Shown piece after piece: positions 4,959 through 64,000 of a stretch of 64,000 nt of DNA. The stretch's first letter is position 1; each line of letters opens with the position of its first letter. The notes beneath the pieces are model-generated. The model was not told where the DNA came from and searched no databases. It worked only from the letters and a program-made list of their open reading frames with translations. The position numbers were made by a program, and so were the translations under genes. Location of the stretch: positions 12,579-76,578 of IMG/VR virus record IMGVR_UViG_3300033066_002431; one strand, given 5' to 3'. This DNA is from a virus (taxonomy: Duplodnaviria > Caudoviricetes).

Positions 4959-4998
4959 CGGCTTCCTCACCACCTCTCTTCTTCCCCGGAGTCAGATC

Positions 4999-8586: not shown

Positions 8587-9074
8587 CCATGTTCCGATCC
8601 CCCTGCCCCCGTCCCGAGTCGATCCGCCTCGCCTTCTGTGAGGTGCTGAACGGGCTCGTCGCGAACGGGATGGCGCTCTACAACGCCGCCAACAAGGCGC
8701 ACTGGAACACGCGCGGCCCGCTCTTCGAGGAGCTTCACAAGCTCTTCGGCGAGGTGGTGAGCGGCGCGGCCGACTGGAACGACACCATCGCCGAACGCGT
8801 GGCCCGCCTCGGTGGCGTCGCCGTGGCCCTCTCGGAAGAGACGGCGCTCCTCGTGACGCTCCCCGCGTTCCCCGTGGGAGAGACGGACGGGCTGAAGCTC
8901 TGCGTCGCGCTGGCAGCCTGCGTGGACGCCTACAACGTCGCCCTCTACGAGGCGATCGACCGCGCCGACACGATGGGTCTGTGGGTCGACGTGAACGACC
9001 TCTCCGCCATCGCGAGCGACGTGGAGAAGCTCGGGTGGAAGCTCGCTGCGACTCTGGAGAAGGCGAGCGCGTGA
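8583..9074 (+). CDS. dps: Dps / ferritin-like protein
   Basis: AHWNTRGPLFEELHKLFGE...DTIAERVARLGG is the Dps signature (HWN..G..F..LH.LF...D.IAER...LGG). Confidence 0.85.
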   Translation: MTMFRSPCPRPESIRLAFCEVLNGLVANGMALYNAANKAHWNTRGPLFEELHKLFGEVVSGAADWNDTIAERVARLGGVAVALSEETALLVTLPAFPVGETDGLKLCVALAACVDAYNVALYEAIDRADTMGLWVDVNDLSAIASDVEKLGWKLAATLEKASA

Positions 9075-10801: not shown

Positions 10802-10861
10802 CCATCAACGGGCCGGTCCGCCGGCCCATCGACAACCACCCTTCACGAGAGATTCACCACC

Positions 10862-11284
10862 ATGACCAGCCCGCTCCGCGTTTCGGAACAGCTCGACCAT
10901 GCGCTCCTGCGCTCGTTCGAGCACGCCTCCATGCCCGCCTTCGCCAAGGGGGCGGAGGTCAAGTTCGGCTCCGACGATCAGCTTCTCGCTGCCGCCGGCA
11001 CCGGCGACATCCTCGCCATCGGCATCACGCACAAGGCGAATGCGGCGGGTCGTCCCGCGCACGTCATCATGTACGGCCACGCGGTCGTGACCGCGCTCGT
11101 CGGCACGGGCGGCGCGACCCGCGGCGTCTGCGCCAAGGGCGTCGCGGACGGCTTCACCGACGCGGCCACGAACGGCGGCGGCACGACCTCGCAGATCATC
11201 AAGGGCCAGTTCCTCCAGACGGGCGTCGCGGGGGACTACGTCGAGATGATGATCGGCGTGAACCCGCGCAGCGTCACCACCTGA
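10862..11284 (+). CDS. capsid cement/decoration protein (DUF2190-like)
   Basis: 140 aa, Gly/Ala-rich, lies between protease and capsid; FAKGAEVKFGSDDQL...AIGIT...GRPAHVIMYG. Confidence 0.75.
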   Translation: MTSPLRVSEQLDHALLRSFEHASMPAFAKGAEVKFGSDDQLLAAAGTGDILAIGITHKANAAGRPAHVIMYGHAVVTALVGTGGATRGVCAKGVADGFTDAATNGGGTTSQIIKGQFLQTGVAGDYVEMMIGVNPRSVTT

Positions 11285-11378
11285 TCCCACCTCCGCGCGG
11301 CCCCTTCGCGCGCGGCGAACCCAACACGAACGAACGCGGACGCGCAAGGGCGCGGGGCCGCATAGGAGAGCTTTACCC

Positions 11379-12500
11379 ATGTTCCAGAGCAACGAAGCCA
11401 TCATGCTCGAAGCGGCCAACTTCGAGTCCATCGCGCGCATGCAGCGCACCCAGCGGAGCATCGAGTTCGAGGCGTTCAAGAACGACTTCGCGCGCATGCT
11501 CCAGAGCAGCGACGAGAAGACCAAGGCGAAGGTCCGCGCGCTCAACGACTCCTACGTCCAGATGCGCGACGTGAGCGGCGCCGTCCACGTCGATGCGCTC
11601 ATGAGCGAGTTCTCCGTGCGCTTCACGAACGAGGCCTACATCGGCTCGCTCCTGATGCCGGAGATCCAGGTCGACAAGCAGTCGAACTTCTACGGCGTGT
11701 GGAACCTGCGGGACCAGCTCGCGTATCCCGACGACACCATCGGGCCGCGCGGTGACGTGAAGCAGCTCGCCAGCAACGTCGACCTGACGAACAGCTACTT
11801 CGCCGGGGAGTACGGTCTCGAGGAGTACGTGGATCTCTCCACGATCGACAACGCGGACGCGCCGCTTCAGCCCCTCATGCACGCCACGTTCAAGGCGAAC
11901 GACGGCATCCTGTGGAATCAGGAGCGCCGCATCATCGACGTGATGACGACGACGGGCAACTACGGCTCGAACTACCTGTCGATCCCGGTCGGCTCGGAGT
12001 GGAACAGCTCGGGCGGTGGCAACCCCGTCCTGAACATCCAGAACGCGGTGGCGAGCGTGCTGCCCGGCCCTGGCCCGACGCGCAAGCTCGGGTTCTGCTC
12101 GTTCCCCGTCTACCAGGCGCTCGCGCGCCATCCTCAGATCCGCGACCTGCACAAGTACACGGCGGCGGGCCTCATGCCGCCGACGTACCTCGCGCAGATC
12201 TTCGATCTGGACGCTCTGCTCGTCGGCAAGGCCTGGAAGGACAGCGCGAACCCGGGACAGACGCTCTCGCTCAACCGCCTGTGGCCCAACGTCTTCGGCG
12301 TCGTAAACGTCATGACCGCGCCGATGAAGGACTCGTACTCGTTCGGCGCCACCTTCCGCTGGGGGCCGAAGTTCAGCGAGGTCCGGTTCGAGAGGAACCG
12401 CGGCCGCCGTGGCGGGTACGTCACGAAGACGAGCGTCTCGTACGTGCCGAAGGTGACGGCGTCCTACGCCGGCTTCCTCCTCACGAACACCCTCGCGTGA
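11379..12500 (+). CDS. major capsid protein
   Basis: 373 aa, GGAGAG RBS, position after the cement gene; LMSEFSVRFTNEAYIGSLLMPEIQVDK resembles capsid E/gpT-like N-termini. Confidence 0.85.
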   Translation: MFQSNEAIMLEAANFESIARMQRTQRSIEFEAFKNDFARMLQSSDEKTKAKVRALNDSYVQMRDVSGAVHVDALMSEFSVRFTNEAYIGSLLMPEIQVDKQSNFYGVWNLRDQLAYPDDTIGPRGDVKQLASNVDLTNSYFAGEYGLEEYVDLSTIDNADAPLQPLMHATFKANDGILWNQERRIIDVMTTTGNYGSNYLSIPVGSEWNSSGGGNPVLNIQNAVASVLPGPGPTRKLGFCSFPVYQALARHPQIRDLHKYTAAGLMPPTYLAQIFDLDALLVGKAWKDSANPGQTLSLNRLWPNVFGVVNVMTAPMKDSYSFGATFRWGPKFSEVRFERNRGRRGGYVTKTSVSYVPKVTASYAGFLLTNTLA

Positions 12501-35801: not shown

Positions 35802-36311
35802 CTACTCGCTCGTCCCGTTCAGCGCCCGCACGAGGTCACCGATCGTCCACGGGCCAGCCTTCAGAAGCTCCGTGGCACGCTCGACGATCTCCTTGTTGAG
35901 GTCGTCGTCCGCGTCGAACGTGATGGTGACATGCTCGTCGTCCTTGTCGATGGACCGTGGCTCGCTCGCGTTCATCTCGCTCCGCAGCGCCTCGAAGCAC
36001 GCCTTGGCGGCATCCTCGCCCCCTTGCTCGGCGCCACGGTAGCGCGCCTCGAGACTCCGCATCGCGTCCACGAACGGGACTGAATGGTCCCGGATCGCCC
36101 GGTAGCAGCCGATCAGTCGTGGGTTCGCGTCGGCCATCACAACGCGGCGCCCCTCCTTCAGCCAGTGGATCGCGAGCGCGCCGGCCCCCGTGAAGACGTC
36201 GAATGCGCGCCCCCTCGGCGATGGTGATGGGATCCGTTCGGAGTAGAGGACGGGGAGCCAGCGCTTCGAGCCGGGCCACCGTCCGAGCGAGTCGACGTCA
36301 GCGGGCAGCAC
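35802..36311 (-). pseudogene. truncated Dam-family adenine methyltransferase fused to an unrelated tail
   Basis: RWPGSKRWL...AFDVFTGAGAL...MADANPRLIGCY is the Dam N-half; no DPPY; sequence diverges after MNASEP. Confidence 0.7.
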
Positions 36312-36999
36312 GGGCCGCCACAGCTTGCCTGCGCGCGACCTCGATCACCTGGCGGATCAACGTCTGCGTGGTCTCGCCCCGCTTGGCGGCGTCCACGCGC
36401 AGCCGTGCCGCGTCCACCGCCCTCACGGAAAAGGTGGTCTGCGTCTTCGGCTCGGTAGTGTCGGAGGCCTCGGGGAAGGTCTCGGCCGCGGCGAGGAGCT
36501 TCGCGACCGTCCCGTCCGGTTGCGACCGGATCCACGCGAGCTGTTTCGCGGTGAGGCTCGTGTTCATCGTCTCGCGCGGGTCCTCGGAGCGTCCGCTACC
36601 GATCGGGGGGAGCAAGTCCTCGAACGCCTGCGACAGCGCGGTCGACCCGCGGATCTCCGTCATCACGTCGCGCTCGCTCCGGCCGGTGATGGTCGTGAGC
36701 TTCTCGATCACCAGCTCGCGCGCAGCGGCTCGCGTGGAAAGGCTCTTCTCGGTCGCGTACCTGGCGACCTCGCCGTCCAGGAAGCTCACCTTGCGGAGCA
36801 CCCGCGCGAGCGGCTTGCGCTTGCGTGCGATGTCCGCGCGGGTCTTCTCGAGGGCCGCCGCGATCACCGGGTTCGTTTCGATATGGTGGTAGATGGCCTG
36901 CCGCGAGACGTTCAGCTCGGTCGCGGCCGCGGACACGCTGCCTCCGTGCTGTTGGAGTGCGCTGACGATCTTCTCGGTGGTGGTGTTCGCGGTGGTCAT
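36298..36999 (-). CDS. multi-domain DNA-binding protein (N-terminal HTH, C-terminal RHH-like)
   Basis: GSVSAAATELNVSRQAIYHHI HTH; TQTTFSVR...LRVDAAKRGETTQTLIRQVI is ribbon-helix-helix-like. Confidence 0.7.
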   Translation of the reverse strand: MTTANTTTEKIVSALQQHGGSVSAAATELNVSRQAIYHHIETNPVIAAALEKTRADIARKRKPLARVLRKVSFLDGEVARYATEKSLSTRAAARELVIEKLTTITGRSERDVMTEIRGSTALSQAFEDLLPPIGSGRSEDPRETMNTSLTAKQLAWIRSQPDGTVAKLLAAAETFPEASDTTEPKTQTTFSVRAVDAARLRVDAAKRGETTQTLIRQVIEVARRQAVAARAAR

Positions 37000-37051: not shown

Positions 37052-40000
37052 TCACCCGTCGGTGAGGCGGTTGTAGAGCGCGCGGCCAAGGTCGGTCTCG
37101 AAGGCGGCCGACTCGCCGACGCCGGCCACCTCGAAGGCGGCGCTCGCGTCGATCCCGTCCGTTGCTTCGGCGACGACGCGCTTCTTCTGCAAGAGGTCGT
37201 TCGCGTCGGCCTGGATGGTGCCGCCGTAGACGAAGATCAGGAAGTCCACCTCTTCCGTCTGGCCGATGCGGACGAAGCGGCCGCGGAACTGCCGGAGCAA
37301 TGTCGGATCGTTGTTCGGATCATCGTAGATGCAGACCGTCGAGAAGTGCCCCACCAAGACGTTGAGGCCCTCGGGCAGGGCGGCCGGGTTGCACACGAGG
37401 ATCCGCGCGCCGTTCTCCTTGGCGTCGATCACCCATTCACGGCGGTTCTTGGCCGACACCTTCTTCGCGTCGAGATGCGCGATGGTGACGCCGGTCGCCT
37501 TCAGGATGCGCGCGAGCCGCTGTCCGAGCGCCGTGCGCACCGTCGCGACCACCACGTTGCGACCGCGCTCCAGAGCGGCACGGACCTCGCGCACGAGAGC
37601 CTCTTCCTTGGGGAGGAGCACCTTCGGGTCCATGCCGGGCTCGACGTGCAGCACGTGCGACTCACCGGCCATGTCCGTGTCTTCGGGGTAGGCGATCGTC
37701 CAGTCTCCGCCTGCGGTGTTGCCGAGGTCCGCCGTCGCGTGGTCGTAGTACCGGGGGAGGTGTCCGAGCGCCCCGAAGAGCTTGCCCGCTCGCCCTGCCT
37801 TGAAGCGGTCTTTCCCGATCGCCTCGCAGATTTTCCGCTGCATGAGGTCGGCGGCCTTCTTCATGGGCTCGCTCGGCGCGCACGACACGAGGCGCTCGTG
37901 AACGGGCGGGAGCGCGATCTCAAGGTCCGCGAGCTGCACGACCACGGAGATCGGCAGCAAGAAGCGCATGACCGCGGTGGGGAGCACGCCAGGGGCCGCG
38001 CCAGTCGTGCGCTCGCGGGTCGTCACGCGGTCGCTGTGCGTCCCGAAGACGACGCGCTTCTTGTTCTCGTCGACTTGCTCGACAACCTGCACGAGGAAGC
38101 CGTAGCGCCGCTCGAACTCGCCAACGTCGCCGTGCTCGAACTCCTGACGGAAGCGGCTCGACAAGTGCCAGAGCAGCACGAAGAGCGTGCGCGCGTAGCC
38201 GTTCATCACCGATCCGGTGAGGGCGATTACGGGGATTTTGCGGCGCGATCGAAGGCTCAAGAGCCTTGATGCCGCGCGGCTTTGTGCGCTGTCGCCGTTC
38301 TGGAACTTATGGAATTCGTCGATGATCATGAAGTCGAACAGGTGGGGTGCTCGCTTCAGGATGTACTTCGCAAGGGACACGCGCCGTGGGTTTGGGACCG
38401 CCTGGTAGAGCAACTCTCCGCACGTCTCTTCCTCCCACGCAGCGACCGTGGCGAGCCGCTCGATCGCGAACTTCAGGGCGTCGTCCGAGCCGCGCTTCCT
38501 GCCATCCAAGAGAGGCTCGTCGCCGTCGCAGCCGAAGCCGCGGAGGTCGTACGGGAAGGGGTCGCCGTTCTTCCACTCGGCTTTCCACTTCCCATCTCGG
38601 CGGAGCTTGTTCGCGGTGAGGATCTCGCTCCCGTTGAACAGCCGGTGAGGCTTGTTCCAGGCGTCGTGCCCCTCGTAGCGGCGCATCTCGCCGAGCGTGG
38701 ACGCGATGAGGGGCGACGACGGCGGCAGCAAGAGCAGCGTCTTTGCGGCGACGTCACGCACGCCCGCATCGTCACCGCCCCCGTAGCCGGCGCTCCGGCT
38801 TTCGAGCGTCGAACGGAAGAGCCGCATCGCCTCGCGCACGATCAAGGCGTCATCGCCGAGCGCGTGCAGCACGTTCCAGTATGCGAGCCGGAGGGTGGTC
38901 CCGCGCTCGTCGTACTTCGTGGTCTTCTCCACAAGACGCCGGAGAGGCTTCACGATGCCCCGCACCACGCCTGCAAGGTCGCGCCAGTCGGCGTCCTCCC
39001 GTCGCCACGCGCGCCGGAGGATGCGACCGCCCACGCGCCGGCATGCGTCTCGAAGCTGCGCGTCGTCGAGCTTGCCGCCGAGCACCGTCAGGCGAGCCAA
39101 GATGCGCGCCGGCCCGTTCGCGGGGGTCGTGATCGTGGTGCCGCACGACAGCCGTTGCTCGGCGAGCTTCTCGCGGCTCTCCGCCTGGAGAGCACCGCAC
39201 GCCCCGCACCGTGCGACGCCCTCCCACGCATGGCCGAGCTTCGCGGGCTCCTTCGAGAGCACGGCGATCTCCATGCCCTCCGCGCGCATCTCGGCGAAGG
39301 CGTCGATGTCGTTCACGCTCTCCAGGAACGTCACGCGCGCGTCCGGGAGCACCTTCGCCACCTCGCTCTTCCACTCGGGCAAAAGCGACGTCGGACAGAG
39401 CACGAGGACCTTCCCGACGCCCCCGAGGTAGTAGTACGCGGCGAGCAAGCTCATCCGGGTCTTGCCGACACCGATCTGTCCGAGCAACACGGCCGCCCGG
39501 TCCGGTTCCTCGAGTAGCCGTAGAAGCGCGCGAACACCGTCCTCCTGTCCGCCGAGGAGCGGATCCGGCGACACGGGGAAGAGCAGCCGATCCTTGTCCT
39601 CCTCGCGCGTCGGGTCGTAGAGAAGCTCGCACCGCGCGCGAAGGGCATCGAGCATGCTGCCGCTGTAGCGCGCGAGGAGATCGCCCACGGACCACTGCGC
39701 GGGATCCTCGTGACCGGACGGCTCCACGCTGGACACAAGCCGGTGATACCGACCCCGCGAGAGGTCCAAGATCGACAGTTGAAGCTCGGGATGGTGTTGC
39801 CGCTCTTCCGCGACGCGCTCCCCCTTCGCTTCCTTCCACCGGAGGTGCCGGAACGTGCGCCGGTGAACGCCCTTCAGGAGAAGCTCCGGTCCGCGCTGGC
39901 CCGCGTCGGGGGTGAGGCGCGCCCCAGAGAGGATGCCCGCACCGGCGGCCATGGCGATGTGCGCCGGCCGTGGTGGGCACGCCAGACGCAGCCGCGGGGC

Positions 40001-40897
40001 CATGATCTCCGTGTACGGGTCTTCGGGCTCCACGTTCGCGACGGCTTGCCGCTGCCCGGCGCGATCGGTGATCGTCCACGGCTGGTAGGCGGCGAGGATG
40101 GAGAGCAAGTCGACCTCACCCATCTTCCACGAAGGGGCCGCGGTCTCCGTCACCTTCACGGTGAGGTGTGCCCGGTGAAGGCCCTTCACGGGAAGCTCCG
40201 GGATGCTGGCGGCGTCCGCGCTCCACGCGCGCACCTGAGCAGCGATCGACGGCTCCGGCGTCGCCAAGGTCATCCGGCGCCGGCCGACGAGCACGACCTG
40301 CTTGAAGGCCTCGAAGTGGGGCGCGGGGACACGCCAGCACGCCACGTCCTCGAAGTGCCGTGCGATGGTGTCCGCGCTGTCGGCGAGCGTGTAGAACGGC
40401 ACGAAGTGAAGGATCGCGCCCCCCACCGTCACGAGCGGGGCGAAGCGGCGAAGCCAGCGCTCTTCGAGCCGGCGGTACTGGCGATCGAAGTCGTACGGGC
40501 AGTTGTGCCAGAGGATGTGGACGCCCTCGTTCGGGCTGTTGGCCAAGAGGAACGAGTCGCCGTGCGCGATCTCGTGCGAGAAGCCCGAGAACTGCCCGCT
40601 GTAGAGCGCGTTCCGAAGGCTGTGCCCGCGGGTCTCTTCCATCTCGCAGGCGAACACCTTCGCGTGCTGGCCCCATTGGGCTTCGCGACTGTCCTTCGGG
40701 CCGGAGAGCATGCCGGCCATCTGGATCCACTCGCGAGCGAGACCGACGACGGCATCGCCGGTGCCCGCGCACGGGTCCGCTACGAAGAGCTTCTCGCCGG
40801 CCTTCATGCTCACGCGCACGGTGGACGCGAGCGCGCGGTAAAGCTCGGGTGGTGCGGGGTAGAAGCCCCCCAGTGCAGTGCTCTCCGGTCTCGCCAT
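37052..40897 (-). CDS. methyltransferase (DUF6094-like)-SF2/SNF2 helicase fusion
   Basis: MARPES..GGFYP, DPCAGTG, WHNCPY; helicase motifs GQIGVGKT, DEFH, ALTGS, EGLNV, QFRGRFVRIGQ. Confidence 0.85.
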   Translation of the reverse strand: MARPESTALGGFYPAPPELYRALASTVRVSMKAGEKLFVADPCAGTGDAVVGLAREWIQMAGMLSGPKDSREAQWGQHAKVFACEMEETRGHSLRNALYSGQFSGFSHEIAHGDSFLLANSPNEGVHILWHNCPYDFDRQYRRLEERWLRRFAPLVTVGGAILHFVPFYTLADSADTIARHFEDVACWRVPAPHFEAFKQVVLVGRRRMTLATPEPSIAAQVRAWSADAASIPELPVKGLHRAHLTVKVTETAAPSWKMGEVDLLSILAAYQPWTITDRAGQRQAVANVEPEDPYTEIMAPRLRLACPPRPAHIAMAAGAGILSGARLTPDAGQRGPELLLKGVHRRTFRHLRWKEAKGERVAEERQHHPELQLSILDLSRGRYHRLVSSVEPSGHEDPAQWSVGDLLARYSGSMLDALRARCELLYDPTREEDKDRLLFPVSPDPLLGGQEDGVRALLRLLEEPDRAAVLLGQIGVGKTRMSLLAAYYYLGGVGKVLVLCPTSLLPEWKSEVAKVLPDARVTFLESVNDIDAFAEMRAEGMEIAVLSKEPAKLGHAWEGVARCGACGALQAESREKLAEQRLSCGTTITTPANGPARILARLTVLGGKLDDAQLRDACRRVGGRILRRAWRREDADWRDLAGVVRGIVKPLRRLVEKTTKYDERGTTLRLAYWNVLHALGDDALIVREAMRLFRSTLESRSAGYGGGDDAGVRDVAAKTLLLLPPSSPLIASTLGEMRRYEGHDAWNKPHRLFNGSEILTANKLRRDGKWKAEWKNGDPFPYDLRGFGCDGDEPLLDGRKRGSDDALKFAIERLATVAAWEEETCGELLYQAVPNPRRVSLAKYILKRAPHLFDFMIIDEFHKFQNGDSAQSRAASRLLSLRSRRKIPVIALTGSVMNGYARTLFVLLWHLSSRFRQEFEHGDVGEFERRYGFLVQVVEQVDENKKRVVFGTHSDRVTTRERTTGAAPGVLPTAVMRFLLPISVVVQLADLEIALPPVHERLVSCAPSEPMKKAADLMQRKICEAIGKDRFKAGRAGKLFGALGHLPRYYDHATADLGNTAGGDWTIAYPEDTDMAGESHVLHVEPGMDPKVLLPKEEALVREVRAALERGRNVVVATVRTALGQRLARILKATGVTIAHLDAKKVSAKNRREWVIDAKENGARILVCNPAALPEGLNVLVGHFSTVCIYDDPNNDPTLLRQFRGRFVRIGQTEEVDFLIFVYGGTIQADANDLLQKKRVVAEATDGIDASAAFEVAGVGESAAFETDLGRALYNRLTDG

Positions 40898-40929
40898 GTC
40901 GCGCTCTCCCTGTAAAGGTGAAGAGCGCG

Positions 40930-40958
40930 AAGATAAGAACGCGCGCGCAGTCTGTCAA
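40930..40958 (-). promoter_or_regulatory. sigma70-type promoter TTGACA-N17-TATCTT
   Basis: Read on the minus strand; the -35 box overlaps the TGA of the upstream gene. Confidence 0.7.
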
Positions 40959-54596: not shown

Positions 54597-55245
54597 AGGT
54601 CCACAACGGGCACTTCTTGGCGTTCTGCCGGTGCCCTTGCTCTCCGCACTTCCCACACCTCTTCAGCGCCTTTGGCATGGGCGATCGGCGCTTGTCGACC
54701 GGCACCCGGCGTCCTCGCCGGCACGAGCTGCATGCGCGTCGCGGGTCCTTCTTCGGGGCTGGACGCTTCCCGCAGCGATAGCAGCGGCCGGCGGCGATCC
54801 GCTCTTCGGCCCGCTGCTTCTGCTTGTCGGCCATCACCTTGCGGCAGCCCTTGCAGCGCGTCTTCGTGAAGCACGGAGCAACACCGCAGTCGCGGCACAT
54901 GCCATCCGCGGCACGCCGCTCAACGGTGGCGTTCGTGCCGTACGAGGGTGCGGTCGTCCGCCTCTCCTCGCAGCCAGCGCACAGCCGGTCTCGCACGGTC
55001 GCAGGAACGAGCCCGCACCTCATGCATAGGCCCGCGGCCTTCCGCGCCAGCATGCGGCGGCGTTCCTGGCGGCTGTGCTTCTTCGTGCAGACGGCACAGA
55101 CCGTCTTGCCGGGCGACACCGGCCGCCGGAAGCACGACTGGCACTTCCATCGCTTCTTGGCGAGCTTGCGCTTCCGCTGCATGTACCCGCGGCGCTGGAC
55201 GCGACTCGCAGCGGTCCGCGGGTAGCTCTTCCGGCGACGCTTCAT
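54568..55245 (-). CDS. tandem Cys4 zinc-finger protein with Arg-rich N-terminus and C-terminal knuckle
   Basis: Four CxxC-x(9-13)-CxxC units plus CGKCGEQGHRQNAKKC; ATG overlaps the TGA of the cysH-like gene. Confidence 0.75.
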   Translation of the reverse strand: MKRRRKSYPRTAASRVQRRGYMQRKRKLAKKRWKCQSCFRRPVSPGKTVCAVCTKKHSRQERRRMLARKAAGLCMRCGLVPATVRDRLCAGCEERRTTAPSYGTNATVERRAADGMCRDCGVAPCFTKTRCKGCRKVMADKQKQRAEERIAAGRCYRCGKRPAPKKDPRRACSSCRRGRRVPVDKRRSPMPKALKRCGKCGEQGHRQNAKKCPLWTSTRRTAPPA

Positions 55246-56066
55246 GCGTAGCAGGCTGCGTCCGGGGCGAGGCCTCGCAAGACTTCGAAGAGGCTCGGGT
55301 AGTACCGCTTGAGCCATGCCGCTGCCCCCTTCGCCGCGTGCGCACCGGGGATCCACCACGACTTGCGGATGAGCCACGGCTTCTGGCGGTGCTCGGGAAG
55401 CCAGCCGCAACAGCGGTACACGTGGAGCGGCTCCACGTCGTGCGCTTGCAGGTAGGCGAACACGTCGATCCCCGTCCAGCCGGCCAGCGGCGCACAGCGC
55501 ACCTGACCGCTCTTGAGCTGGTAGGTGGCCCCCTTCGCGGTGAGGAGCCTCTCGCGCCGGCCGCTCTCCTCGGCGCGGAGCCCCCAGAGCATGAGGTCGC
55601 GCCCCTCGTTCGCGCGCTCCATCACGCCGTAGAAGCATGCCTTCGAGAGGCCGGCACTCCGGCTGTGCATGTCCTCGCCCGCGGAGAGGGCACCACGGCG
55701 CTCCAGAAGCCACGCGAGCGGCGACGTCTCCGGCCGGAGGATCTCAAGGTCGACGGCGAAGCGGGACGCGAGGTCGCGCACGTAGGCTTCCTCGCCGGGG
55801 TAGTCGAGATCGTCCTTCTCCGAGATGGTGTGGACGTTCGCTTGGAGCTCGACGCGCACGAGATGGACGAGCGCCGTCGAGTCCTTCCCACCGGACCACG
55901 ACAGGACCGGCGTTGCCGCGTTGCCGAGCGCACGGCCGACGATCCGCTTCGCCGTGTCGACGGCTCGACGGTGCGAGAGGGACCGCGCGTGCATGGCAAA
56001 GGTGATGCGCCAGCGGTCCCACACGCGGACGTCTTCGGGGGAGAGAACGGGCTCGACGTGTTCCAT
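55242..56066 (-). CDS. cysH: CysH-like PAPS-reductase-family protein (type IV-B-associated style)
   Basis: VLSWSGGKDSTAL, LWGLRAEESGRR, CAPLAGWTGIDVFAYL. Confidence 0.8.
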   Translation of the reverse strand: MEHVEPVLSPEDVRVWDRWRITFAMHARSLSHRRAVDTAKRIVGRALGNAATPVLSWSGGKDSTALVHLVRVELQANVHTISEKDDLDYPGEEAYVRDLASRFAVDLEILRPETSPLAWLLERRGALSAGEDMHSRSAGLSKACFYGVMERANEGRDLMLWGLRAEESGRRERLLTAKGATYQLKSGQVRCAPLAGWTGIDVFAYLQAHDVEPLHVYRCCGWLPEHRQKPWLIRKSWWIPGAHAAKGAAAWLKRYYPSLFEVLRGLAPDAACYA

Positions 56067-57157
56067 CAGAACAGGGTGCGCCAACGCGCGAACCTGTCGA
56101 CGGGCTTCGTCTTCGACCTGGGGACGGGGATGCTGTTCTCGTAGTCGTTCACGAGGAGCTGCTTGCACTGCGCGTGATGCACGGGCTCCGTCGCCGGCTG
56201 GCCTGCAAAGCGCTTCTCGAAGCGGGCTCGCTTCTTCGCGTCGATCGGCATCGTCGCGAGAAGATGCTCTCGGTACGCGAGCCACGTCGCGAACCCGGTA
56301 GGGAGCTTCTGCACGTCGTAGAGGTGCGCGCCCTGCGCATGGTGGGCGGCGCAGTGGACGCCCTTCAACCGCTTCACCAGACGCGCGTACGTGTCGGGCT
56401 CCAGAGCGGCGAGGTCGGGGAGGCACCTGAAGCTCATCTCGTGAATCAGGTTGCTCACCCGGTTGTCGTTGTAGACGCCGCCGTTCATGGCCCAGCGGAG
56501 ATCGTAGATCCGGTTGTACGGCGCGCGCGTGTCGGCGACGAACCGCCAGACGTCGCCCATCCCCCAGTCATAGAGCGGGTACGCCTTGAAGCTCGTCGCG
56601 TTGCCAGTGCGCGAGGTCCACGGCACGCCATCGACGCCGGCGTTCTTCACCACCGCGCGGAAGCGGTTGATGCCTTCCTCCGCGCGCAGGCCCACCAAGA
56701 AGGTGGTGTCCGGCGTCTTCTCTTCGAGCCACTCGAAGAAGGGGTAGAAGCGGGCGGGGTAGTCGCCGTCGATGTAGTGGATCGAGCCTGGCTCCTTCTC
56801 GCGCATCCACGGCTCGCCCGGCCCCCACGCGTAGAGATGGTCTTCCGCGTAGCTCGTCGCGTTCGTCATGCGGATCGGCACCTGATACCAGGCGGGGATC
56901 ACGGCCGGGTGCGCCATCATCGTGCGCATGAGGGCGATGGTCCCCTCGTACTCCGCTTCCTGATCCAGGAAGAAGAGCGTCACCTTGCGGCCCCGTCGCC
57001 CGGCTTCGTCCACGGCAAGGTGGAAGAGCACTGTGCTGTCCTTGCCGCCCGAGACCGACACGTTCACGCGCTCGAATCGGTCGAACACCCATGCGACTCG
57101 GGCGCGGGCGGCGTCGAGCACGCTCTCCGGCAGGTACGTCTTGACGATCTGCCTCAC
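56066..57157 (-). CDS. ibrA: IbrA-like PAPS-reductase-family protein
   Basis: VSVSGGKDSTVL, FFLDQEAEYEGT, GLRAEEGINR, YPLYDWGMGDVW. Confidence 0.8.
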   Translation of the reverse strand: MRQIVKTYLPESVLDAARARVAWVFDRFERVNVSVSGGKDSTVLFHLAVDEAGRRGRKVTLFFLDQEAEYEGTIALMRTMMAHPAVIPAWYQVPIRMTNATSYAEDHLYAWGPGEPWMREKEPGSIHYIDGDYPARFYPFFEWLEEKTPDTTFLVGLRAEEGINRFRAVVKNAGVDGVPWTSRTGNATSFKAYPLYDWGMGDVWRFVADTRAPYNRIYDLRWAMNGGVYNDNRVSNLIHEMSFRCLPDLAALEPDTYARLVKRLKGVHCAAHHAQGAHLYDVQKLPTGFATWLAYREHLLATMPIDAKKRARFEKRFAGQPATEPVHHAQCKQLLVNDYENSIPVPRSKTKPVDRFARWRTLF

Positions 57158-58062
57158 GGTTCCCCCGCCTTGCTCTGGTGTCTCAGGTAGGCGTCGAGCA
57201 GCCGGTTCGTGTGCGTCACGAGGCTGTCGACCTCAAGAGAGAGCCATTCGTCGAACGGGAGGTCCGTGCGCACGAAGCGGTGTTCCGCCCGGCCGTAGAG
57301 GTGCCGCATGTCGTGGGGGATGGTGCGCCCCGGGTAGCGCTCAGTGATCCACCGCGCGAGCTTCGTCTTCACGCTGGTGATGCTCTTCTCGCTCGCGAAG
57401 AGGCCGTCGCGGAACGCCGCGTACTCCGCATGGTGTTCGGCGCTCACGAGGAGCATCTTCGCGAAGAACGTCGGGAGGCCTCGGATCTGCCGGTCGACGA
57501 TCGCGCCCTTCCACGTGAGGCTGGCGATGCGCTCGGCGTCGCACGGGTTCTGCGGGAGACCGCCGTCCAGCCAGCGATCGTAGTCTTGCTCGATCGCGTA
57601 GCTGTGGTGGTAGCCGAGCAAGCTCCGATCGAAGAACGCGAATGGGAAGTAGACGCGCCACGGTGCGACCTCGTAGGGCAGCACGTCGACCACGATGCGC
57701 TTCCGCGCGGCCTTCCGACGCATGTACCCCCGGCGCACGTCGAGCCTGTTGCCGATGGTGCGGCGCTGGTCTGCGAGGATGATCGCCAGGCTGTCGGACG
57801 GGAGCGCGGCGACGGAGGCCACATTCGCGGGCGTCCCGTACGTCTCCCACGGCGACACGCTCACGATGAGGTTGTGGGCGCGCGCGAGACGCTCGATCGC
57901 GTCGGTCGTCTGCACGTGCGTCGCCGCGTTCGGGACGTAGAGCACGTGCGAGATGCTCGGGTCCGCCCGGAAGTAGGCGTCGAGCGTCTCGAAGGTGAAC
58001 GTCGGCCGCTGCGTGAAGATGGCGAAGCCGGAGCCCGCGAGCATGCGATCCACGCGGGTCAC
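57154..58062 (-). CDS. hypothetical protein between ibrB and ibrA
   Basis: GTG at 58062 overlaps the ibrB TGA; 302 aa; IVVDVLPYEVAPWRVYFPF. Confidence 0.7.
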   Translation of the reverse strand: MTRVDRMLAGSGFAIFTQRPTFTFETLDAYFRADPSISHVLYVPNAATHVQTTDAIERLARAHNLIVSVSPWETYGTPANVASVAALPSDSLAIILADQRRTIGNRLDVRRGYMRRKAARKRIVVDVLPYEVAPWRVYFPFAFFDRSLLGYHHSYAIEQDYDRWLDGGLPQNPCDAERIASLTWKGAIVDRQIRGLPTFFAKMLLVSAEHHAEYAAFRDGLFASEKSITSVKTKLARWITERYPGRTIPHDMRHLYGRAEHRFVRTDLPFDEWLSLEVDSLVTHTNRLLDAYLRHQSKAGEP

Positions 58063-58763
58063 TTCGTCGACCCCTTCTCGAACGACCACGCGCGCCCATA
58101 GCTGCCGCTCGCGAGGTTCTGCGCAGCCCCGCCAAGCTGGCGCATGCGAATCAGTTCTTCATCGGACTTCACCAGCCCGACACCCACGTGCTCGTCGGTC
58201 CATCCGGCCTTGTCCAGCGCGGCGACGATGGCGACCTCGCGCTCGACGCTGTGCGTGCCGCGCGCCTGGTTGTGGAGCACCGTCGCCGACATCTGGTCCG
58301 CTTCGCTCATGGTCCCCTGCAAGAGCGAGAACGGCAGGTAGCCGTGGACGCGCGCGGAGACCTCGGGATCCGACCCGCAGACGACGTGCCGGTGGAAGCC
58401 GTCCGTGATGCGCACGGGACCGGCTTCAAGCCGCGCGCCGACGATGGGCATCGTGATCCCGTAGGTCTTCATGCTGTGCGCGAGCGACACCATCTCGGGC
58501 GGCGGCACGGCGTTCGGGTTCCAGGTGTTCGGCTCGCTCTCGGCGCGAGGGATCCAGAGGACGCAGTCGACGGGCTCGCTCGCGAACGGAGAGACCGCGT
58601 GGAGCGCCGTGCGCGCGCGGTTGAGGGCTTCCACCTTGGCGGCGAGGCCGAGTCCATCGATGGCCCGCACAAGCTCGTCGATCGCCCCTTCTACGCGGGC
58701 TTCCGCCTCGGACCGGAGCGGCCCCCTGTCCCGGTCAAACAAGCTCGTCTGCGCGGGCTTCAT
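58059..58763 (-). CDS. ibrB: IbrB-like ParB/Srx protein
   Basis: SPFASEPVDCVLW...NTWNPNAVPPPEM...MPIV...ITDGFHR. Confidence 0.85.
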   Translation of the reverse strand: MKPAQTSLFDRDRGPLRSEAEARVEGAIDELVRAIDGLGLAAKVEALNRARTALHAVSPFASEPVDCVLWIPRAESEPNTWNPNAVPPPEMVSLAHSMKTYGITMPIVGARLEAGPVRITDGFHRHVVCGSDPEVSARVHGYLPFSLLQGTMSEADQMSATVLHNQARGTHSVEREVAIVAALDKAGWTDEHVGVGLVKSDEELIRMRQLGGAAQNLASGSYGRAWSFEKGSTK

Positions 58764-59119
58764 GTTGCCCACCGGACCCACGTCCAGCCGCCCTTGCTCG
58801 CGCGCAGTTTCACGAAGCCTGCGGCCACGTGTGCCTTCTCGCTACCGACGTTGCCGTGGTGGATGTACGCGACGCAGTGAAGGCCCTTCGCGTGCTCCTC
58901 GTAGGCGGCGCGCGTGAGGCCCCGGCCGCGGTACGCCGGCAGCACGAAGATCGGTCCGAGCCGGTAGCCGTGCGGGGTGTCGTGCGGGTGGCAGAAGCCG
59001 ACCACGCGCCCCTCGCAGACGATGGGGCGCCGGAGGTGCGCGTCCTTCCCGCGCAGGTGGATGTGCGGTTCCTTGCGGGCCGCTGCGACGACGTCGTCCG
59101 GGATCTCAAGGTCCATCAC
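58760..59119 (-). CDS. GNAT acetyltransferase
   Basis: LGPIFVLPAYRGRGL (acetyl-CoA motif A) and NVGS...AAGF. Confidence 0.8.
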   Translation of the reverse strand: MMDLEIPDDVVAAARKEPHIHLRGKDAHLRRPIVCEGRVVGFCHPHDTPHGYRLGPIFVLPAYRGRGLTRAAYEEHAKGLHCVAYIHHGNVGSEKAHVAAGFVKLRASKGGWTWVRWAT

Positions 59120-59739
59120 GACACCTCACCGAAGGTGTGCCGGTAGCTCTCCGACTGCCGAGCGCCACGGTGCCCGGGGAGCGTGGACGGCCCCGGGCGG
59201 TGCTGCACGAGCGAGGGGAGGCGCACGTACACCTTCGCGCCCTTGCTCGACAGGTAGCCGCCGAGGAGCAGATCGGCCGCGCGGTTGTGCTGGGGGTGCC
59301 GCGCGTACCAGCCCGGGGCGTAGGCCTCGACTCCGGCAGCAAGCTCGCTCCGGATGATGAACCCCTGCGACATGGAGAAGCTGCTCGGCGCGAGCGACCG
59401 ATGCGCGTACCCGTTCCGCAGCATCTCGAGGTCGCGGCGAGCGCGCGAGAACAGCGTCACCACGTCGGCGCCATCGGGGACGTTCAGCGCGCGGGTGCCG
59501 AAGCCTGGACAGAGGACCACGTCGTCTTCGAGCTGGAGAACCCACGGCCGACCCACCTTCGCGGCGTCTGCGAGCGCGCGGGGGAAGTCGACCCGTGCGG
59601 GCGTCCCCTCTTCGTGAGCGCAGATCAGCAGCACGGCGCCGGGGCACTCGCTCTTGATCTGGGTCATGAGCGCTTCCACGAACGCCGCTCGGCGGGGAAG
59701 CATCGCGGGGATGGTGATCGTGACGTCGTTCCACTTCAT
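59116..59739 (-). CDS. GT-A fold glycosyltransferase
   Basis: WVLQLEDDVVLC (xDD motif), QGFII, ADLLLG, PSLVQH. Confidence 0.75.
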   Translation of the reverse strand: MKWNDVTITIPAMLPRRAAFVEALMTQIKSECPGAVLLICAHEEGTPARVDFPRALADAAKVGRPWVLQLEDDVVLCPGFGTRALNVPDGADVVTLFSRARRDLEMLRNGYAHRSLAPSSFSMSQGFIIRSELAAGVEAYAPGWYARHPQHNRAADLLLGGYLSSKGAKVYVRLPSLVQHRPGPSTLPGHRGARQSESYRHTFGEVS

Positions 59740-60041
59740 GAGAACCTCTTCCGCAGCGTGGCCACGCCCTCTGCGAGCGCCACGTCCGGATCCCTCTTGA
59801 TCTGCTTCAGAAACGCGGGTCGCACGAGCGCTTCCCACGCGCGCGTGATGGTGGCTTCGTCCTCCCCGAGGCTCGAAAGCTCCTTGGCGAGACGGAGCGC
59901 CGCGTGCCAATCCTCGGCAGCGACGGCGGCACGCACTTTCTCCAGCTTCGAGTCGGGCTGACCAGGGGCCTTCGCGGTGATGGGAGTAGGCTTCGACGGT
60001 CGGGGCTTGCCGAAGAGGGGCCGACGGTCGCGACGAGCCAT
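59736..60041 (-). CDS. hypothetical protein with a basic N-terminus
   Basis: 101 aa; stop overlaps the GT start (ATGA). Confidence 0.6.
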   Translation of the reverse strand: MARRDRRPLFGKPRPSKPTPITAKAPGQPDSKLEKVRAAVAAEDWHAALRLAKELSSLGEDEATITRAWEALVRPAFLKQIKRDPDVALAEGVATLRKRFS

Positions 60042-60043
60042 GG

Positions 60044-60880
60044 TCAGGTGGCAACGTCGGTCAAGGTCGACAGGTACCACCTGCGCCAGTCGGTACCGAC
60101 GCAGTGCTGATATTTCGAGAGGAAGTCGCGAGCTTTCTCCGGAGTTTCCCCGTAGCGCTCGACGAGCTTCGCCCACGACGCTTCCACGACCGGACGCGGC
60201 GCATACAGCACGGTGCGGTCGTCATCGTAGTCGTGGGCGTGCATCACGTACACGACCTCGCCGGAGACAGCGCGGCGCTCGTCCACCCGGACGTAGTGCG
60301 AGGCGCCCTCCGTCCACGTCGCGACGGTGACGCTCGGTGCCGTCGCCAGCACGCTGGAATCGAAACTGTCGGTTCGAACAAGCCCCGTGGTGAGCTGCTC
60401 GACCTTCGCCTTCTCGGCCTCGATCGCCGCCTTCGCGGCTTCCTTTGCGGCTCGCGCGTCATCCTGCTTGGCCTGCTCGGCAGCTTCTTCCGCTTCGAGC
60501 TTCGCTGTCTCCTCGGCGGTCGCCAAGCGGCATCCGAGGTGGGCGTGCCAGCCGCCGCCCCGCATGTCGCCCATGTCTTCGTTGTCCTCTTCGCTCTGGT
60601 AGGACGCTCGCTGCGTCAGCACGGTCGCCACCTTCCCTTTGTTCGGGCCGCTGGCGATGCGGAAGGTGCGTCCCACCTCGGAGTCGGTGCCCGGCTTGCC
60701 GTAGCCGCGAAAGTCAAGCGAGACGCTGAACTCCACGCCCTGCGCAGCCGCGAGCCGCTTCTCCGGGCACTTCACGTGCTTCGATCCGGTGGCCTTGCTC
60801 CACTCGATCTGTGCTCCCGCGGGAAAGGAACCCCCGCACGCTTTGCACTGCTCGGGAAACTTCGAGGTAATCACGGCCAT
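60044..60880 (-). CDS. protein with an N-terminal zinc finger (paralog of 52357..52617), probably leaderless
   Basis: MAVITSKFPEQCKAC...GAQIEW...HVKC; ATG 6 nt from the -10 box. Confidence 0.7.
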   Translation of the reverse strand: MAVITSKFPEQCKACGGSFPAGAQIEWSKATGSKHVKCPEKRLAAAQGVEFSVSLDFRGYGKPGTDSEVGRTFRIASGPNKGKVATVLTQRASYQSEEDNEDMGDMRGGGWHAHLGCRLATAEETAKLEAEEAAEQAKQDDARAAKEAAKAAIEAEKAKVEQLTTGLVRTDSFDSSVLATAPSVTVATWTEGASHYVRVDERRAVSGEVVYVMHAHDYDDDRTVLYAPRPVVEASWAKLVERYGETPEKARDFLSKYQHCVGTDWRRWYLSTLTDVAT

Positions 60881-60886
60881 GCGCGT

Positions 60887-60915
60887 TTGATAAGACAACT
60901 CGCGCGCTATGTCAA
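60887..60915 (-). promoter_or_regulatory. promoter TTGACA-N17-TATCAA
   Basis: The -35 box overlaps the TGA of csf3. Confidence 0.75.
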
Positions 60916-61646
60916 GCGACCGTGCCGAGCGCGACGCGAGGAACCGCGCACACGCAGACGTTCTTGTTGGCCCAGTACGGCGCGCGCGTGGCCTTCTCCC
61001 CGCAGATTGGATCGTTCAACTTCGGGCAGCCTTTGCCGAGGGGTAGCGAGCGCATGGGCTCGCCCTTCCACGCAAGCGAGCGCTCCTCCGGGTCCGGCAT
61101 GTACTCCACGCCGAGGATGGTCCCGAGGCCCGACGAGTAGCCACGTCCGATGGCGGTGGCGTCGCCGAGGAGATCCCGCACGAGAGCCGCGTCCCCTGCG
61201 AGGTGGAAGTCGAGCCACGGGGTGGTGAGCGCCTGCACGGGGATGTTCGTGCTCTTGAACGCTCCGCCCGCGATGGTGAGCCGCCCGCCGCTCATGGCTT
61301 CGAGACGTGCGCGCTTGCGTCGCCATCGGAGCGACTCGACGGCGATCGGGGGCGGCCACCCCCACGACGCGCACGCGATCGGCAGCCCCATGATCTCAAC
61401 GTCCGCGACGGGGATCGGGATCTCTGGGTTGAGGCCTCGGGGGCACTCGGCGAAGACGTCGTCGGAAAGGCGGCTCGTCTCGCGCTCCACGACGAGCCGC
61501 TGAAGCAGCCCGTCGATCTGGACGCCGTTGTCGCTCCACGCGACGGGCGAGGAGAACCACACGCGCACGGTGAAGCTCTTGCTCTTCGAGGCGCGCCATC
61601 GCTCCGCCCGCGCGAGCCACGCCGTGTTGTCGTCGAGCCAGCTCAC
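60912..61646 (-). CDS. csf3: Csf3 (Cas5-like) type IV subunit
   Basis: GTG at 61646; FTVRVWFSSPV...IDGLL, Gly-rich AIGRGYSSGLG, C-terminal RAPYW. Confidence 0.75.
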   Translation of the reverse strand: MSWLDDNTAWLARAERWRASKSKSFTVRVWFSSPVAWSDNGVQIDGLLQRLVVERETSRLSDDVFAECPRGLNPEIPIPVADVEIMGLPIACASWGWPPPIAVESLRWRRKRARLEAMSGGRLTIAGGAFKSTNIPVQALTTPWLDFHLAGDAALVRDLLGDATAIGRGYSSGLGTILGVEYMPDPEERSLAWKGEPMRSLPLGKGCPKLNDPICGEKATRAPYWANKNVCVCAVPRVALGTVA

Positions 61647-63112
61647 GCCGTCGCCTCGCGCGCCTTGCGGCCCTTCTTGGGCGCCGGCTCGGTGGTGCCG
61701 GCGAGCCACTCGAGGATCGGCTCCCGGTGCGTCGACAGGTAGTCGAGGTACTCCGCGCCGCTGGGGAGGGGCTCCGCCTTCTCGGCGGGCTTGTACCCGA
61801 GCGTGGAGACCTGGCCGTAGCCGCGGCTGGTCTGCGCGCCAAGCAGGCCCACGTCCGCGAAGTCTTCGAGCAAGTCGGCGAGGCAGCTCTGCGCGAGCGT
61901 GGAGACCGTCGACAGGCTCACCACGCTGAACGTGTGGAAGAGCCGTGCGCCGGGCTTGATGGCCTCCGTGTTCCAGATCATCTGCGCGCCGCCCTCGTCA
62001 GCCGAGAGGTCGCCGCCGGGAAGGTCCCGGTGCGCGTGACGCACGCCAAGCCGCAAGAGCGTCCAGTCGTCGGAGGGAAGGAGGCTCGCCGCGAAGTCCT
62101 CGTAGTCGAGCGGTCGGCCAAGCACGTCGGTGGGCTCCATCATCCGGTAGAGCTTCCACGCATTCTCTCGGCACAACAGCGTGCAGTCGTGGACGCGGAG
62201 CAGACCGCTCATGATCTGCTGTTCGATGCAGCCGCCGAGCAAGTCGATCGCGGGGATGGTGCTTCGCGCACGCATGCGGACGTCGAGCCGCGCGGTGGCT
62301 CCGTCGGCCCCCTTCTCGATGGTGCCGCCCGAGAACAGCTCTTGCGCGCGACGCTGCGAGAGGTCGGTCTCGGGCTTCACCTTCAACGCGCGGAGCATCC
62401 TGGCGAAGAAGAGGTCGCGCCACTGCCCCTTGATGGCGTTGCCCGTGTAGATCGGCACGAGCGCCTGCTCTCCGGTGAAGGGGTCGACCTGGGGTTGCCG
62501 GCGGAAGAGGCAGACGTTGCCTGCCTTCTCGTCGTGGCCGTGCGCGAGCGGAGAGACAACCTGGAACCACGCGCGGTGCTGCTTGGGGCTCTGCATGGCC
62601 TCGCCGGGGAGGACGCCCGTCCAGCGCGGGCCGTCGTGGTCGATGCTCTTCGGCAGGTAGGCGATGTCCTGTTCGCTCGGCGGCGTCTGCGCGAAGGTGA
62701 TGAAGAAGTCGCTGCCCTCGTTCACGACGATGCGCACGGCTTCGAGGCTCGTGTGCTGCGCGATGATGGCCCACGGCACGACGCGCTTGCCCTCGTGAAC
62801 GATGCCGGGAAGGTCGCCCGCGATCTCGTCGGGGATAAACGCCGCGACCGACCGAAAGTCGCGCGTCTCGCCATCGGCGATCTCGGCGCTGCCCGCGTTC
62901 AGCTCGATCTCGAAGCGCTTCGCGAGCGCCTGCACGAACGCCATGGTCGAGCGCGCGGCGATGGTGCCCGCGCGCAGGTAGTCGCTCATCTCGCTGGGGA
63001 GGTTGCGGTGACGAGCGGCACCGATCCGCCGCTTGTCGACGCGGCGGAACATGGCGCGGAGCAGATACGCGAAGCGCACGCGCGCCTCGTAGACTTCGGT
63101 CTTGGTGGCCAT
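61643..63112 (-). CDS. csf2: Csf2 (Cas7-like) with a fused N-terminal Cas11-like helical domain
   Basis: VVSPLAHG...LFRR...VPIYTGNAIKGQWRD...LFSGG...IDLLGG...GLLRV...CREN and GAQTSRGYG; about 165-aa helical N-terminus. Confidence 0.8.
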   Translation of the reverse strand: MATKTEVYEARVRFAYLLRAMFRRVDKRRIGAARHRNLPSEMSDYLRAGTIAARSTMAFVQALAKRFEIELNAGSAEIADGETRDFRSVAAFIPDEIAGDLPGIVHEGKRVVPWAIIAQHTSLEAVRIVVNEGSDFFITFAQTPPSEQDIAYLPKSIDHDGPRWTGVLPGEAMQSPKQHRAWFQVVSPLAHGHDEKAGNVCLFRRQPQVDPFTGEQALVPIYTGNAIKGQWRDLFFARMLRALKVKPETDLSQRRAQELFSGGTIEKGADGATARLDVRMRARSTIPAIDLLGGCIEQQIMSGLLRVHDCTLLCRENAWKLYRMMEPTDVLGRPLDYEDFAASLLPSDDWTLLRLGVRHAHRDLPGGDLSADEGGAQMIWNTEAIKPGARLFHTFSVVSLSTVSTLAQSCLADLLEDFADVGLLGAQTSRGYGQVSTLGYKPAEKAEPLPSGAEYLDYLSTHREPILEWLAGTTEPAPKKGRKAREATA

Positions 63113-64000
63113 TCAGGATCTCCGGGTGAGAGGGGGCATGCGAAGGAGGGGAACGAAGAAGGCCCACCATCGGGCCGCGACGTGCGGACGAAGGGGCGCG
63201 ACGCGGGCGGACCACCTGTCGGGCGCAGCGACGGCGAGAGGCGCACCACGGGGCGCCCGCAGGGTCGTGATGGCCTCGCGCGCGTCGTCGGAGCCAACCC
63301 CGCCGGCGCGAAGGTCGGCAAGCAGCGGCTCGCAGAGAACGCGCAACGTGGTCCAGAGCGCGACGTCGACCACGATGTTCGTGTCGTCCACGGCGAGGTC
63401 GTACCGGCGCGCGTCGTACGAGACTTTCGCAAAGGGCAGGGTGTGCTTCGTCTGGAGCTTCCACAGCGGGTCCGCCGGGTGATGCACGCCGCCCGCGCCG
63501 TCCGGACAGAACGTCCGGTGACAGTTGGCCTCCCCGCCGTGGTCGATGCCGTAGAGGGGGCACCACGCGACGAAGGGCGGGGCCGGCGGGTTGAGGAGCG
63601 CCGTCAGGGCGTCAGGCCGGACGAAGGGCCACTCGCGGGCCGCCGGCCAGTCTGCGGGCTTGGGGATCGGTCGCAGGGCGACGGGGTAGACGCCGCCAGG
63701 ACCGACCGCATCCGAACAGCGCGCGAAGCACAGGCCGGTCTTCACGTAGAGCGAGCGGAACGACCACACGCAGCCGGCGCACAGCCGCTCGGTGCCGTGC
63801 GGCCAGAGGATCGCCGCGTTGCGGATCGTAGTGAACTTGTCGCTGATCGCCTGATCGACGCGGTAGCGGGAGTCGAGCGCCCCGCAGTGCGCGCAGGCGT
63901 CGCCAGTGCCGCCGAGGGGCAGGATGGGGGTGCCGTCGCTCTCCACGGGGGAAGGGCGGCCGGCGGCTTCCCACACGAACGAGGTGGCGCGGGTAGTCAC
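63113..64000 (-). CDS. csf1: Csf1 (Cas8-like) type IV large subunit (start at the window edge)
   Basis: CAHCG...ISDKFT...LCAGC zinc finger; LLNPPAPPF and KH motifs. Confidence 0.75.
   Translation of the reverse strand: MTTRATSFVWEAAGRPSPVESDGTPILPLGGTGDACAHCGALDSRYRVDQAISDKFTTIRNAAILWPHGTERLCAGCVWSFRSLYVKTGLCFARCSDAVGPGGVYPVALRPIPKPADWPAAREWPFVRPDALTALLNPPAPPFVAWCPLYGIDHGGEANCHRTFCPDGAGGVHHPADPLWKLQTKHTLPFAKVSYDARRYDLAVDDTNIVVDVALWTTLRVLCEPLLADLRAGGVGSDDAREAITTLRAPRGAPLAVAAPDRWSARVAPLRPHVAARWWAFFVPLLRMPPLTRRS

Follow-up and report, generated by a model that had tools for sequence, protein, structure and literature searches.

A phage-borne type IV-B CRISPR-Cas operon with a Cas11-Csf2 fusion and a recurrent set of linked enzyme genes

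In this study, we analyzed a 64,000-nucleotide stretch of viral DNA (hereafter the window), which corresponds to bases 12579-76578 of the 76,578-bp IMG/VR virus record IMGVR_UViG_3300033066_002431 and whose end is also the end of that record, and found that it carries a phage-borne type IV-B CRISPR-Cas effector operon. Csf1, Csf2, Csf3, a Cas11 domain that appears to be fused to Csf2, and an orthologue of CasCysH, the CysH-like partner of type IV-B systems, are encoded together. With regard to type IV-A, neither DinG, nor Csf5/Cas6, nor an array was found in the record, and a Cas11 domain is present. Type IV-B loci have been published from plasmids and sometimes prophages (PMC7038947), as well as from an archaeal virus, with lytic phages also mentioned (PMC10848311), and their biological function was still called unclear in 2026 (PMC13676074). 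The new elements of the present locus are a clade of Cas11-Csf2 fusions and a recurrent set of linked genes for an IbrA-like enzyme, a ParB-like protein and the orfE family, accompanied by a GNAT acetyltransferase.

The Csf core and the Cas11-Csf2 fusion

A preliminary description, made from the sequence without database searches, had placed csf1, csf2 and csf3 at the end of the window. All three proved to be real minus-strand genes at these positions, as revealed by their PADLOC matches, with the start of csf3 set at 61646 (Table 1). First, csf1 was matched by the PADLOC typeIV_Cas8/Csf1 model (E-value (E) 1.6e-10), and four cysteines of its product (C36, C39, C74 and C77, arranged as CxxC...CxxC) were invariant across 6 orthologues. 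The orthologue in L004, the closest relative of the locus, is 76% identical and also has 295 amino acids (aa), so that the csf1 gene of the window is complete. Second, a profile built from 24 full-length Csf2 relatives matched Csf2 in the type IV-B structure 7JHY (E 7.5e-12), and the top matches of a Foldseek search with the full Csf2 model were type IV-A and IV-B Cas7 chains. Third, csf3 was matched by a PADLOC model and also, under the cut-off, by TIGR03116 (E 6e-6, 26 bits, with a cut-off of 140). The correct start codon of csf3 is the GTG at 61646, in GTGA overlap with the stop codon of csf2; a GTG at 61709 was rejected, as the start at 61646 gives 244 aa, the length of the orthologues. 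The ATG of csf2 lies directly after the csf1 stop codon. The tight coupling of the three genes and the type IV-B-like nature of the effector (Csf1-3, a fused Cas11 domain and a CasCysH orthologue in the same operon) agree with the preliminary description.

Table 1. Features of the type IV-B operon, in window coordinates.
Feature	Position	Strand	Description
csf1 (Cas8-like large subunit)	63113..64000	-	295 aa, complete; record ends with its GTG start codon
csf2, whole gene	61643..63112	-	489 aa; Cas11-like N-domain and Cas7 domain
Cas11-like N-domain of Csf2 (residues 1-179)	62576..63112	-	Predicted helical bundle; beta-meander inserted at about residues 74-113
Csf2 (type IV Cas7) domain	61643..62575	-	PADLOC typeIV_Cas7, E 4.6e-44, residues 182-473 only
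csf3 (Cas5)	60912..61646	-	244 aa; PADLOC Csf3_0_IV, E 1.4e-28
orfA	60044..60898	-	284 aa; N-terminal CxxC, then an Ala/Glu/Lys-rich stretch; variable; from frame plot and tblastn
orfB	59736..60041	-	101 aa; conserved across several related loci
orfC	59116..59739	-	207 aa; conserved LEDDV motif (alignment)
GNAT acetyltransferase	58760..59119	-	119 aa; Pfam Acetyltransf_1, E 7.1e-6, above its cut-off
orfD	58059..58706	-	About 215 aa; invariant DG.HR motif (DGFHR in most)
orfE	57154..58062	-	302 aa; unannotated family of about 300 aa adjoining the IbrA-like gene
cysH1	56066..57157	-	363 aa; IbrA-like; PAPS_reduct E 2.4e-13, DUF3440 E 2.7e-8
cysH2	55242..56066	-	274 aa; last operon gene; Pfam PAPS_reduct E 5.7e-14

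Modeled alone with AlphaFold 2, residues 1-179 of Csf2 gave a predicted local distance difference test score of 88.5 and a predicted template modeling score of 0.80. In an exhaustive structural alignment of this model against 48,161 PDB representatives, chain 7jhy_h ranked first (Z 8.2; root-mean-square deviation 3.6 Å, 110 of 143 residues), and the runner-up reached Z 3.9. We infer that this chain is Cas11 from its length of 143 aa and from the published description of the complex, the model of which contains only Csf2, Cas11 and RNA, and in which the type IV Cas11 fold was reported to be unlike those of other small subunits (PMC7937560). Since helical bundles commonly reach such Z scores by chance, our argument rests on the gap between the first and the second match (8.2 versus 3.9). 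On this model-based comparison, the Cas11 match appears to be specific, and Csf2 is predicted to be a Cas11 fused to a Cas7. Other searches with this region gave no match, including the PDB search with the profile of 24 relatives (first ~180 residues of Csf2), the comparison with the PADLOC Cas11 models and a Foldseek search of the PDB, and a protein-atlas search returned nothing useful.

The fusion is not an assembly artefact but the rule in its clade, as indicated by two observations. First, 33 relatives of Csf2 have a similar length (483-525 aa, except for one partial sequence of 401 aa). Second, in a search of 1.84 billion representatives, a profile of the N-domain identified only 40 clusters, and almost all of these clusters are 450-580 aa long with the domain at the N-terminus. 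A search aimed at shorter proteins that are related to the Cas7 part but lack the fusion yielded one probable fragment; plasmids in PLSDB aligned only to the Cas7 part (26-31% identity), and a 140-aa match to the N-domain (P0042) could not be placed on any contig. In a tree of the Cas7 domain, 14 fused and 3 unfused sequences were split by a long branch (support 98/96). A single origin of the fusion is our provisional reading, owing to the small number of outgroups and the long branches. No Cas11-Csf2 fusion was found in the open-access literature that we searched.

Analysis of the genes and repeats expected for guide production revealed no CRISPR array in the 76,578-bp record, which stops at csf1, at least 10 kb short of the end of the source contig, and covers roughly half of the phage, and an Rfam scan of the record detected no CRISPR-DR. 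Likewise, a seed scan of 8 related loci found no array within 10 kb on either side of csf2. Six-frame searches of the record identified no Csf4/DinG, Cas6 or Cas1; Cas2 was not separately searched for. The absence of an array and of cas6, cas1 and dinG, which the preliminary description had noted for the window, thus extends to the whole 76.5-kb record. That neither an array nor Cas6 was found argues against a conventional guide.

Enzyme genes linked to the Csf core

At a G+C content of ~68%, raw lists of open reading frames are noisy; third-position GC indicated unbroken minus-strand coding from 64000 down to ~55240. L004, in which Csf2 is 87% identical to that of the window, served as a reference to resolve eight genes past csf3, the last of which ends at 55242 on the minus strand, and a convergent plus-strand gene closes the operon near 55225. 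The operon comprises 11 genes and ends in two PP-loop ATP pyrophosphatases, cysH1 and cysH2, in both of which the SGGKDS PP-loop motif is intact. The product of cysH2 is 30% identical (E 2e-18) to that of the cysH-like gene after csf3 in Skermania phage SPI1 and 26% identical to that of a gene adjoining csf2 in Nocardia; judged by its sequence, cysH2 is the orthologue of the canonical type IV-B CasCysH. On the other hand, cysH1 passes the Pfam cut-offs for both PAPS_reduct and DUF3440 and is IbrA-like.

The protein encoded by orfD may be a member of the ParB/Srx superfamily (IbrB/DndB-like), to which several sub-threshold matches point weakly: a profile of orfD matched ParB and Noc chains at E 0.03-0.06, the orthologue in the related locus L008 matched Pfam ParB_N under the curated cut-off (E 3.5e-4), and NCBIfam gave weak matches to ParB, Noc, SerK and SbnI, all under their curated cut-offs. 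Within a candidate IbrA/IbrB-like pair, then, the cysH1 half has both Pfam domains, and the orfD half has the sub-threshold ParB_N match together with the DG.HR motif. The family of orfE comprises at least 212 clusters, among which no Pfam or PDB match was found (an alignment of 38 sequences was used for the PDB profile). A language-model lead that orfE might be the N-domain of a ResIII/SNF2 helicase was rejected, as there was no Walker A motif and no PDB profile match or credible Pfam match. The product of orfC is possibly, and at weak strength, a GT-A-type glycosyltransferase; its sole family match, to GT2, came from the orthologue in L008 and had an E of 0.1, and no PDB sequence match was found. 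Finally, orfA had no family match in profile searches and is common only to the window and the related locus L003; an unrelated 140-aa gene occupies its place in L004.

The preliminary description had also called the linked enzyme cluster unusually rich, which was confirmed; the cluster is also conserved across relatives. We compared the gene content of 15 distinct related loci, all of which have a fused csf2; among the related contigs, nine are IMG/VR viral contigs of 11-198 kb. CasCysH was present in 13 of the 15 loci and the IbrA-like gene in nine, followed by the ParB-like gene (8/15), GNAT (6/15), orfE (5/15) and orfC (4/15). Gene order was shuffled in lineages whose Csf2 shares only 35-40% identity with that of the window. 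Furthermore, in L025 an unfused cas11 (120 aa), csf2 and csf3 occur together with ParB-like, orfE, IbrA-like and CasCysH genes, which shows that the enzyme set is not tied to the fused architecture. We also sampled two distant homologues of orfE solely for their long contigs, and in both cases an IbrA-like gene follows immediately downstream; the two loci, one of which is L025, also contain Csf3 and another PAPS reductase.

One of the two loci without CasCysH is on a contig that ends early. The other, L015 (344-9533), contains a distant fused Cas11-Csf2 (561 aa), a csf3-like gene and, at the place of cysH, two radical-SAM enzymes (505 and 493 aa), which suggests that the Csf core can pair with another enzyme class. 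Two further loci differ in gene content. In L006/L023, at 8506-12318 of a 198-kb IMG/VR contig, fused csf2 and csf3 were found with no csf1 detected, and CasCysH is divergently transcribed just upstream. The P0185 locus combines a distant orfE homologue with Csf3, Csf1, GNAT, an IbrA-like gene and a second PAPS reductase, as well as two Cas6 (PF09559) fragments and a 300-aa gene tagged by Pfam as AcrVA2-like.

Possible functions of the operon

Our preferred reading, held tentatively and with slightly less than even confidence, is that the Csf complex and the operon enzymes form a joint machine for the covalent modification of nucleic acid. By analogy with Csf2 and Cas11 in 7JHY, the Cas11-Csf2 fusion would polymerize on RNA; the fusion protein would be the RNA-bound backbone, its Cas11 domains would constitute the minor filament at a Cas11:Csf2 ratio fixed at 1:1, and Csf3 and Csf1 would cap the filament. 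The filament and the operon enzymes would then covalently modify a nucleic acid that is bound to the complex or lies close to it. Adenylation of a substrate would fall to the two PP-loop enzymes, and completion of the modification to the ParB/Srx-like protein, the GNAT and the possible glycosyltransferase. The likely benefit would be to aid the phage against host defenses or competing elements. The recruitment of CasCysH by type IV-B to modify bound nucleic acid was already proposed by Taylor and co-authors (PMC8175902), and the larger conserved enzyme set is what this locus adds to their proposal. A broader version, in which type IV-B in this widespread phage lineage would have become an RNA-bound platform for a multi-enzyme DNA/RNA modification pathway serving counter-defense, with adenylation by the two PP-loop enzymes followed by acyl and/or sugar transfer, seems doubtful to us.

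Several points weigh against a joint machine. The link between the enzymes and the Csf complex is one of gene neighborhood, and the assignments of orfC to glycosyltransferases and of orfD to ParB are sub-threshold matches, while orfE is without a known fold (no Pfam or PDB match in its family). The published type IV-B complex bound heterogeneous RNA (PMC7937560), which makes site selection doubtful. Moreover, IbrA-like homologues are present in 136 cultured phage records, whereas the csf2 search there matched one. In Flavobacterium phage FCV-1 (L024, NC_041845.1), overlapping genes for a ParB-like protein and an IbrA-like PAPS reductase occupy 2938-4607, with the terminase gene on one side, the portal gene on the other and no Csf gene nearby, which shows that the pair can exist as a phage module of its own. 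Four or five of the related lineages have no more than the Csf genes and CasCysH.

The last three of these observations favor the idea that two independent modules are present, namely Csf plus CasCysH as type IV-B proper, and the other enzymes as a separate phage DNA-modification or anti-restriction module. The IbrA-like, ParB-like, orfE, GNAT and orfC genes would then share only the operon and the expression time with Csf. The abundance of DNA methyltransferases in the window and in the corresponding regions of relatives also fits this idea. However, the set is kept in the Csf operon, in shuffled order, in about seven lineages at 35-60% identity; the same set occurs in the unfused type IV-B locus, and the two distant orfE homologues, which were sampled blind, both fall in Csf loci. 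In addition, the IbrA-like gene is found in ~0.3% of cultured phage records versus 9/15 of the fused-csf2 loci. We consider two independent modules somewhat unlikely, but more likely than the other alternatives.

The preliminary description had suggested that the complex could be a sponge for host CRISPR RNAs (crRNAs). Such a complex would soak up host crRNAs or other small guide RNAs and thereby disable host immunity. This guide sponge or anti-CRISPR hypothesis has been discussed in the literature (PMC8175902, PMC7038947) and would agree with carriage by a phage and with a system in which no array, Cas6 or nuclease was seen. However, our analysis gave it no support. The type IV-B complex of Mycobacterium sp. 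JS623 took up few co-expressed type I-E crRNAs (PMC7937560), the near-invariant PP-loop partner and the conserved enzyme set would be left unexplained, and so complex an anti-CRISPR was judged unlikely by the authors of PMC7038947. We therefore regard the sponge as improbable. A guide-dependent silencer that borrows crRNAs from a host array, from the flank or from the missing half of the phage, and blocks transcription in the manner of type IV-A, appears equally improbable. The sequence beyond the record leaves room for it, mini-arrays occur in some virus-borne type IV-B loci (PMC10848311), and Cas6 fragments are present in one distant orfE-family locus; on the other hand, the array searches of the record and of the 8 related loci were negative, and no Cas6 or helicase partner was found. 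A decaying, non-functional remnant, for which nothing specific speaks, is hardly credible, given that every reading frame is open with a strong third-position GC signal, the zinc-binding and PP-loop motifs are invariant, and orthologues are conserved over many phage lineages.

The CysH-like partner is the one constant clue to the function of type IV-B, and the present lineage provides two more handles. One is the fusion, which would fix the stoichiometry of the two filaments and should simplify reconstitution; the other is the conserved, order-shuffled enzyme set (the IbrA-like enzyme, the ParB/Srx-like protein, the ~300-aa family, the GNAT and the possible glycosyltransferase). Taken together, the fusion and the enzyme set speak more for covalent modification than for cleavage or sponging, and they offer several active sites that can be mutated, with nucleoside mass spectrometry as a possible read-out. 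They would also tie the poorly understood IbrA/IbrB-type pair of phages to a defined partner system.

The carrier phage and comparison with known systems

The element is a contractile-tailed, myovirus-like phage, as terminase, portal, major head, tail sheath, tape measure and baseplate genes are all present in the record. The myovirus assignment of the preliminary description is therefore correct, and the virion module that it reported is real. The record is not a full genome but a trimmed phage fragment (classified as a provirus in IMG/VR, with a CheckV completeness of ~54%). The record ends exactly at the start codon of csf1 (base 64000). In the source metagenome run, a contig goes on past this base for at least 10 kb, and in L004 the side beyond csf1 carries phage-type replication genes (RecO_N and Toprim, with a 247-nucleotide spacer); thus, the provirus boundary may reflect trimming and not a true junction with the host. 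The Csf2 of the window is also recorded on a 91,099-bp contig.

The myxobacterial host proposed earlier was not supported. The best match of the major capsid protein among 401 genomes from the phylum of a Sorangium metagenome-assembled genome (MAG) was 35% identical, and the matches of the portal were Mu-like, at ~30% identity, and scattered across many hosts. Relatives were found in only three species-representative genomes, a Pseudomonadota MAG, the Sorangium MAG and Nocardia. A megablast search with positions 56000-64000 against cultured phages gave no match, and the Rfam scan of the record detected no family; no tRNA gene was found either. The neighborhood of Csf is rich in DNA-modification genes. 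On the same arm as the operon, the window contains a fragment of a Dam-type (D12) DNA methyltransferase (35802-36344, minus strand) and a 1300-aa fusion of a DUF6094 methyltransferase with an SNF2 helicase (37052-40954, minus strand), which is not DinG. Near the Csf operons of relatives, Mom, N6_N4 and C5 methyltransferases were observed.

Among known systems, the type IV-B locus on the megaplasmid of Mycobacterium sp. JS623 (7JHY; PMC7937560) resembles the present one in its Csf1, Cas11, Csf2, Csf3 and CysH-like partner and in lacking an array, Cas6 or helicase (here within the 76.5-kb record). The same structure provided both the best PDB sequence match, for the Cas7 part, and the best structural match, for the N-domain. 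In contrast with JS623, Cas11 is here fused to the N-terminus of Csf2 and contains a beta insert, the carrier is a phage rather than a plasmid, and seven further genes lie between csf3 and the CasCysH gene. The Csf2 of the window also stands apart from canonical type IV-B, with an identity of at most ~31%.

The type IV-B loci of the archaeal 'Fuxiviridae' (PMC10848311) and of Skermania phage SPI1 are similar in that an array-poor operon with a cysH-like gene is carried by a tailed virus. In SPI1 (L014, KR011061.1), an isolated actinophage, the canonical type IV-B operon is complete but its genes are annotated simply as hypothetical proteins; it is located at 3807-7440 and consists of csf1, cas11 (PADLOC, E 5.9e-15), csf2 (E 1.2e-66), csf3 and a cysH-like gene. 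Both differ from the present locus in having a separate cas11 and a single cysH-like gene, and the Fuxivirus has a mini-array.

With regard to the enzymes, the closest likeness is to IbrA/IbrB of Escherichia coli prophages, in which a PAPS_reduct plus DUF3440 enzyme occurs with a ParB-like protein (a role for which orfD has sub-threshold matches). A similar likeness may be drawn between cysH1/orfD and DndC/DndB, a pair made up of a PP-loop enzyme of the PAPS reductase family and a ParB-like protein. Unlike both of these pairs, the present one is part of a Csf operon and its two genes are separated by orfE, and no Fe-S or sulfur-transfer partner was seen here. For the fusion, type III-E Cas7-11 (gRAMP) is a precedent in which Cas11 is fused to Cas7 domains in one polypeptide. 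Cas7-11, however, is a single multi-Cas7 effector that uses crRNA, whereas one Cas11 and one Cas7 are joined per polypeptide in the window fusion, which presumably still polymerizes.

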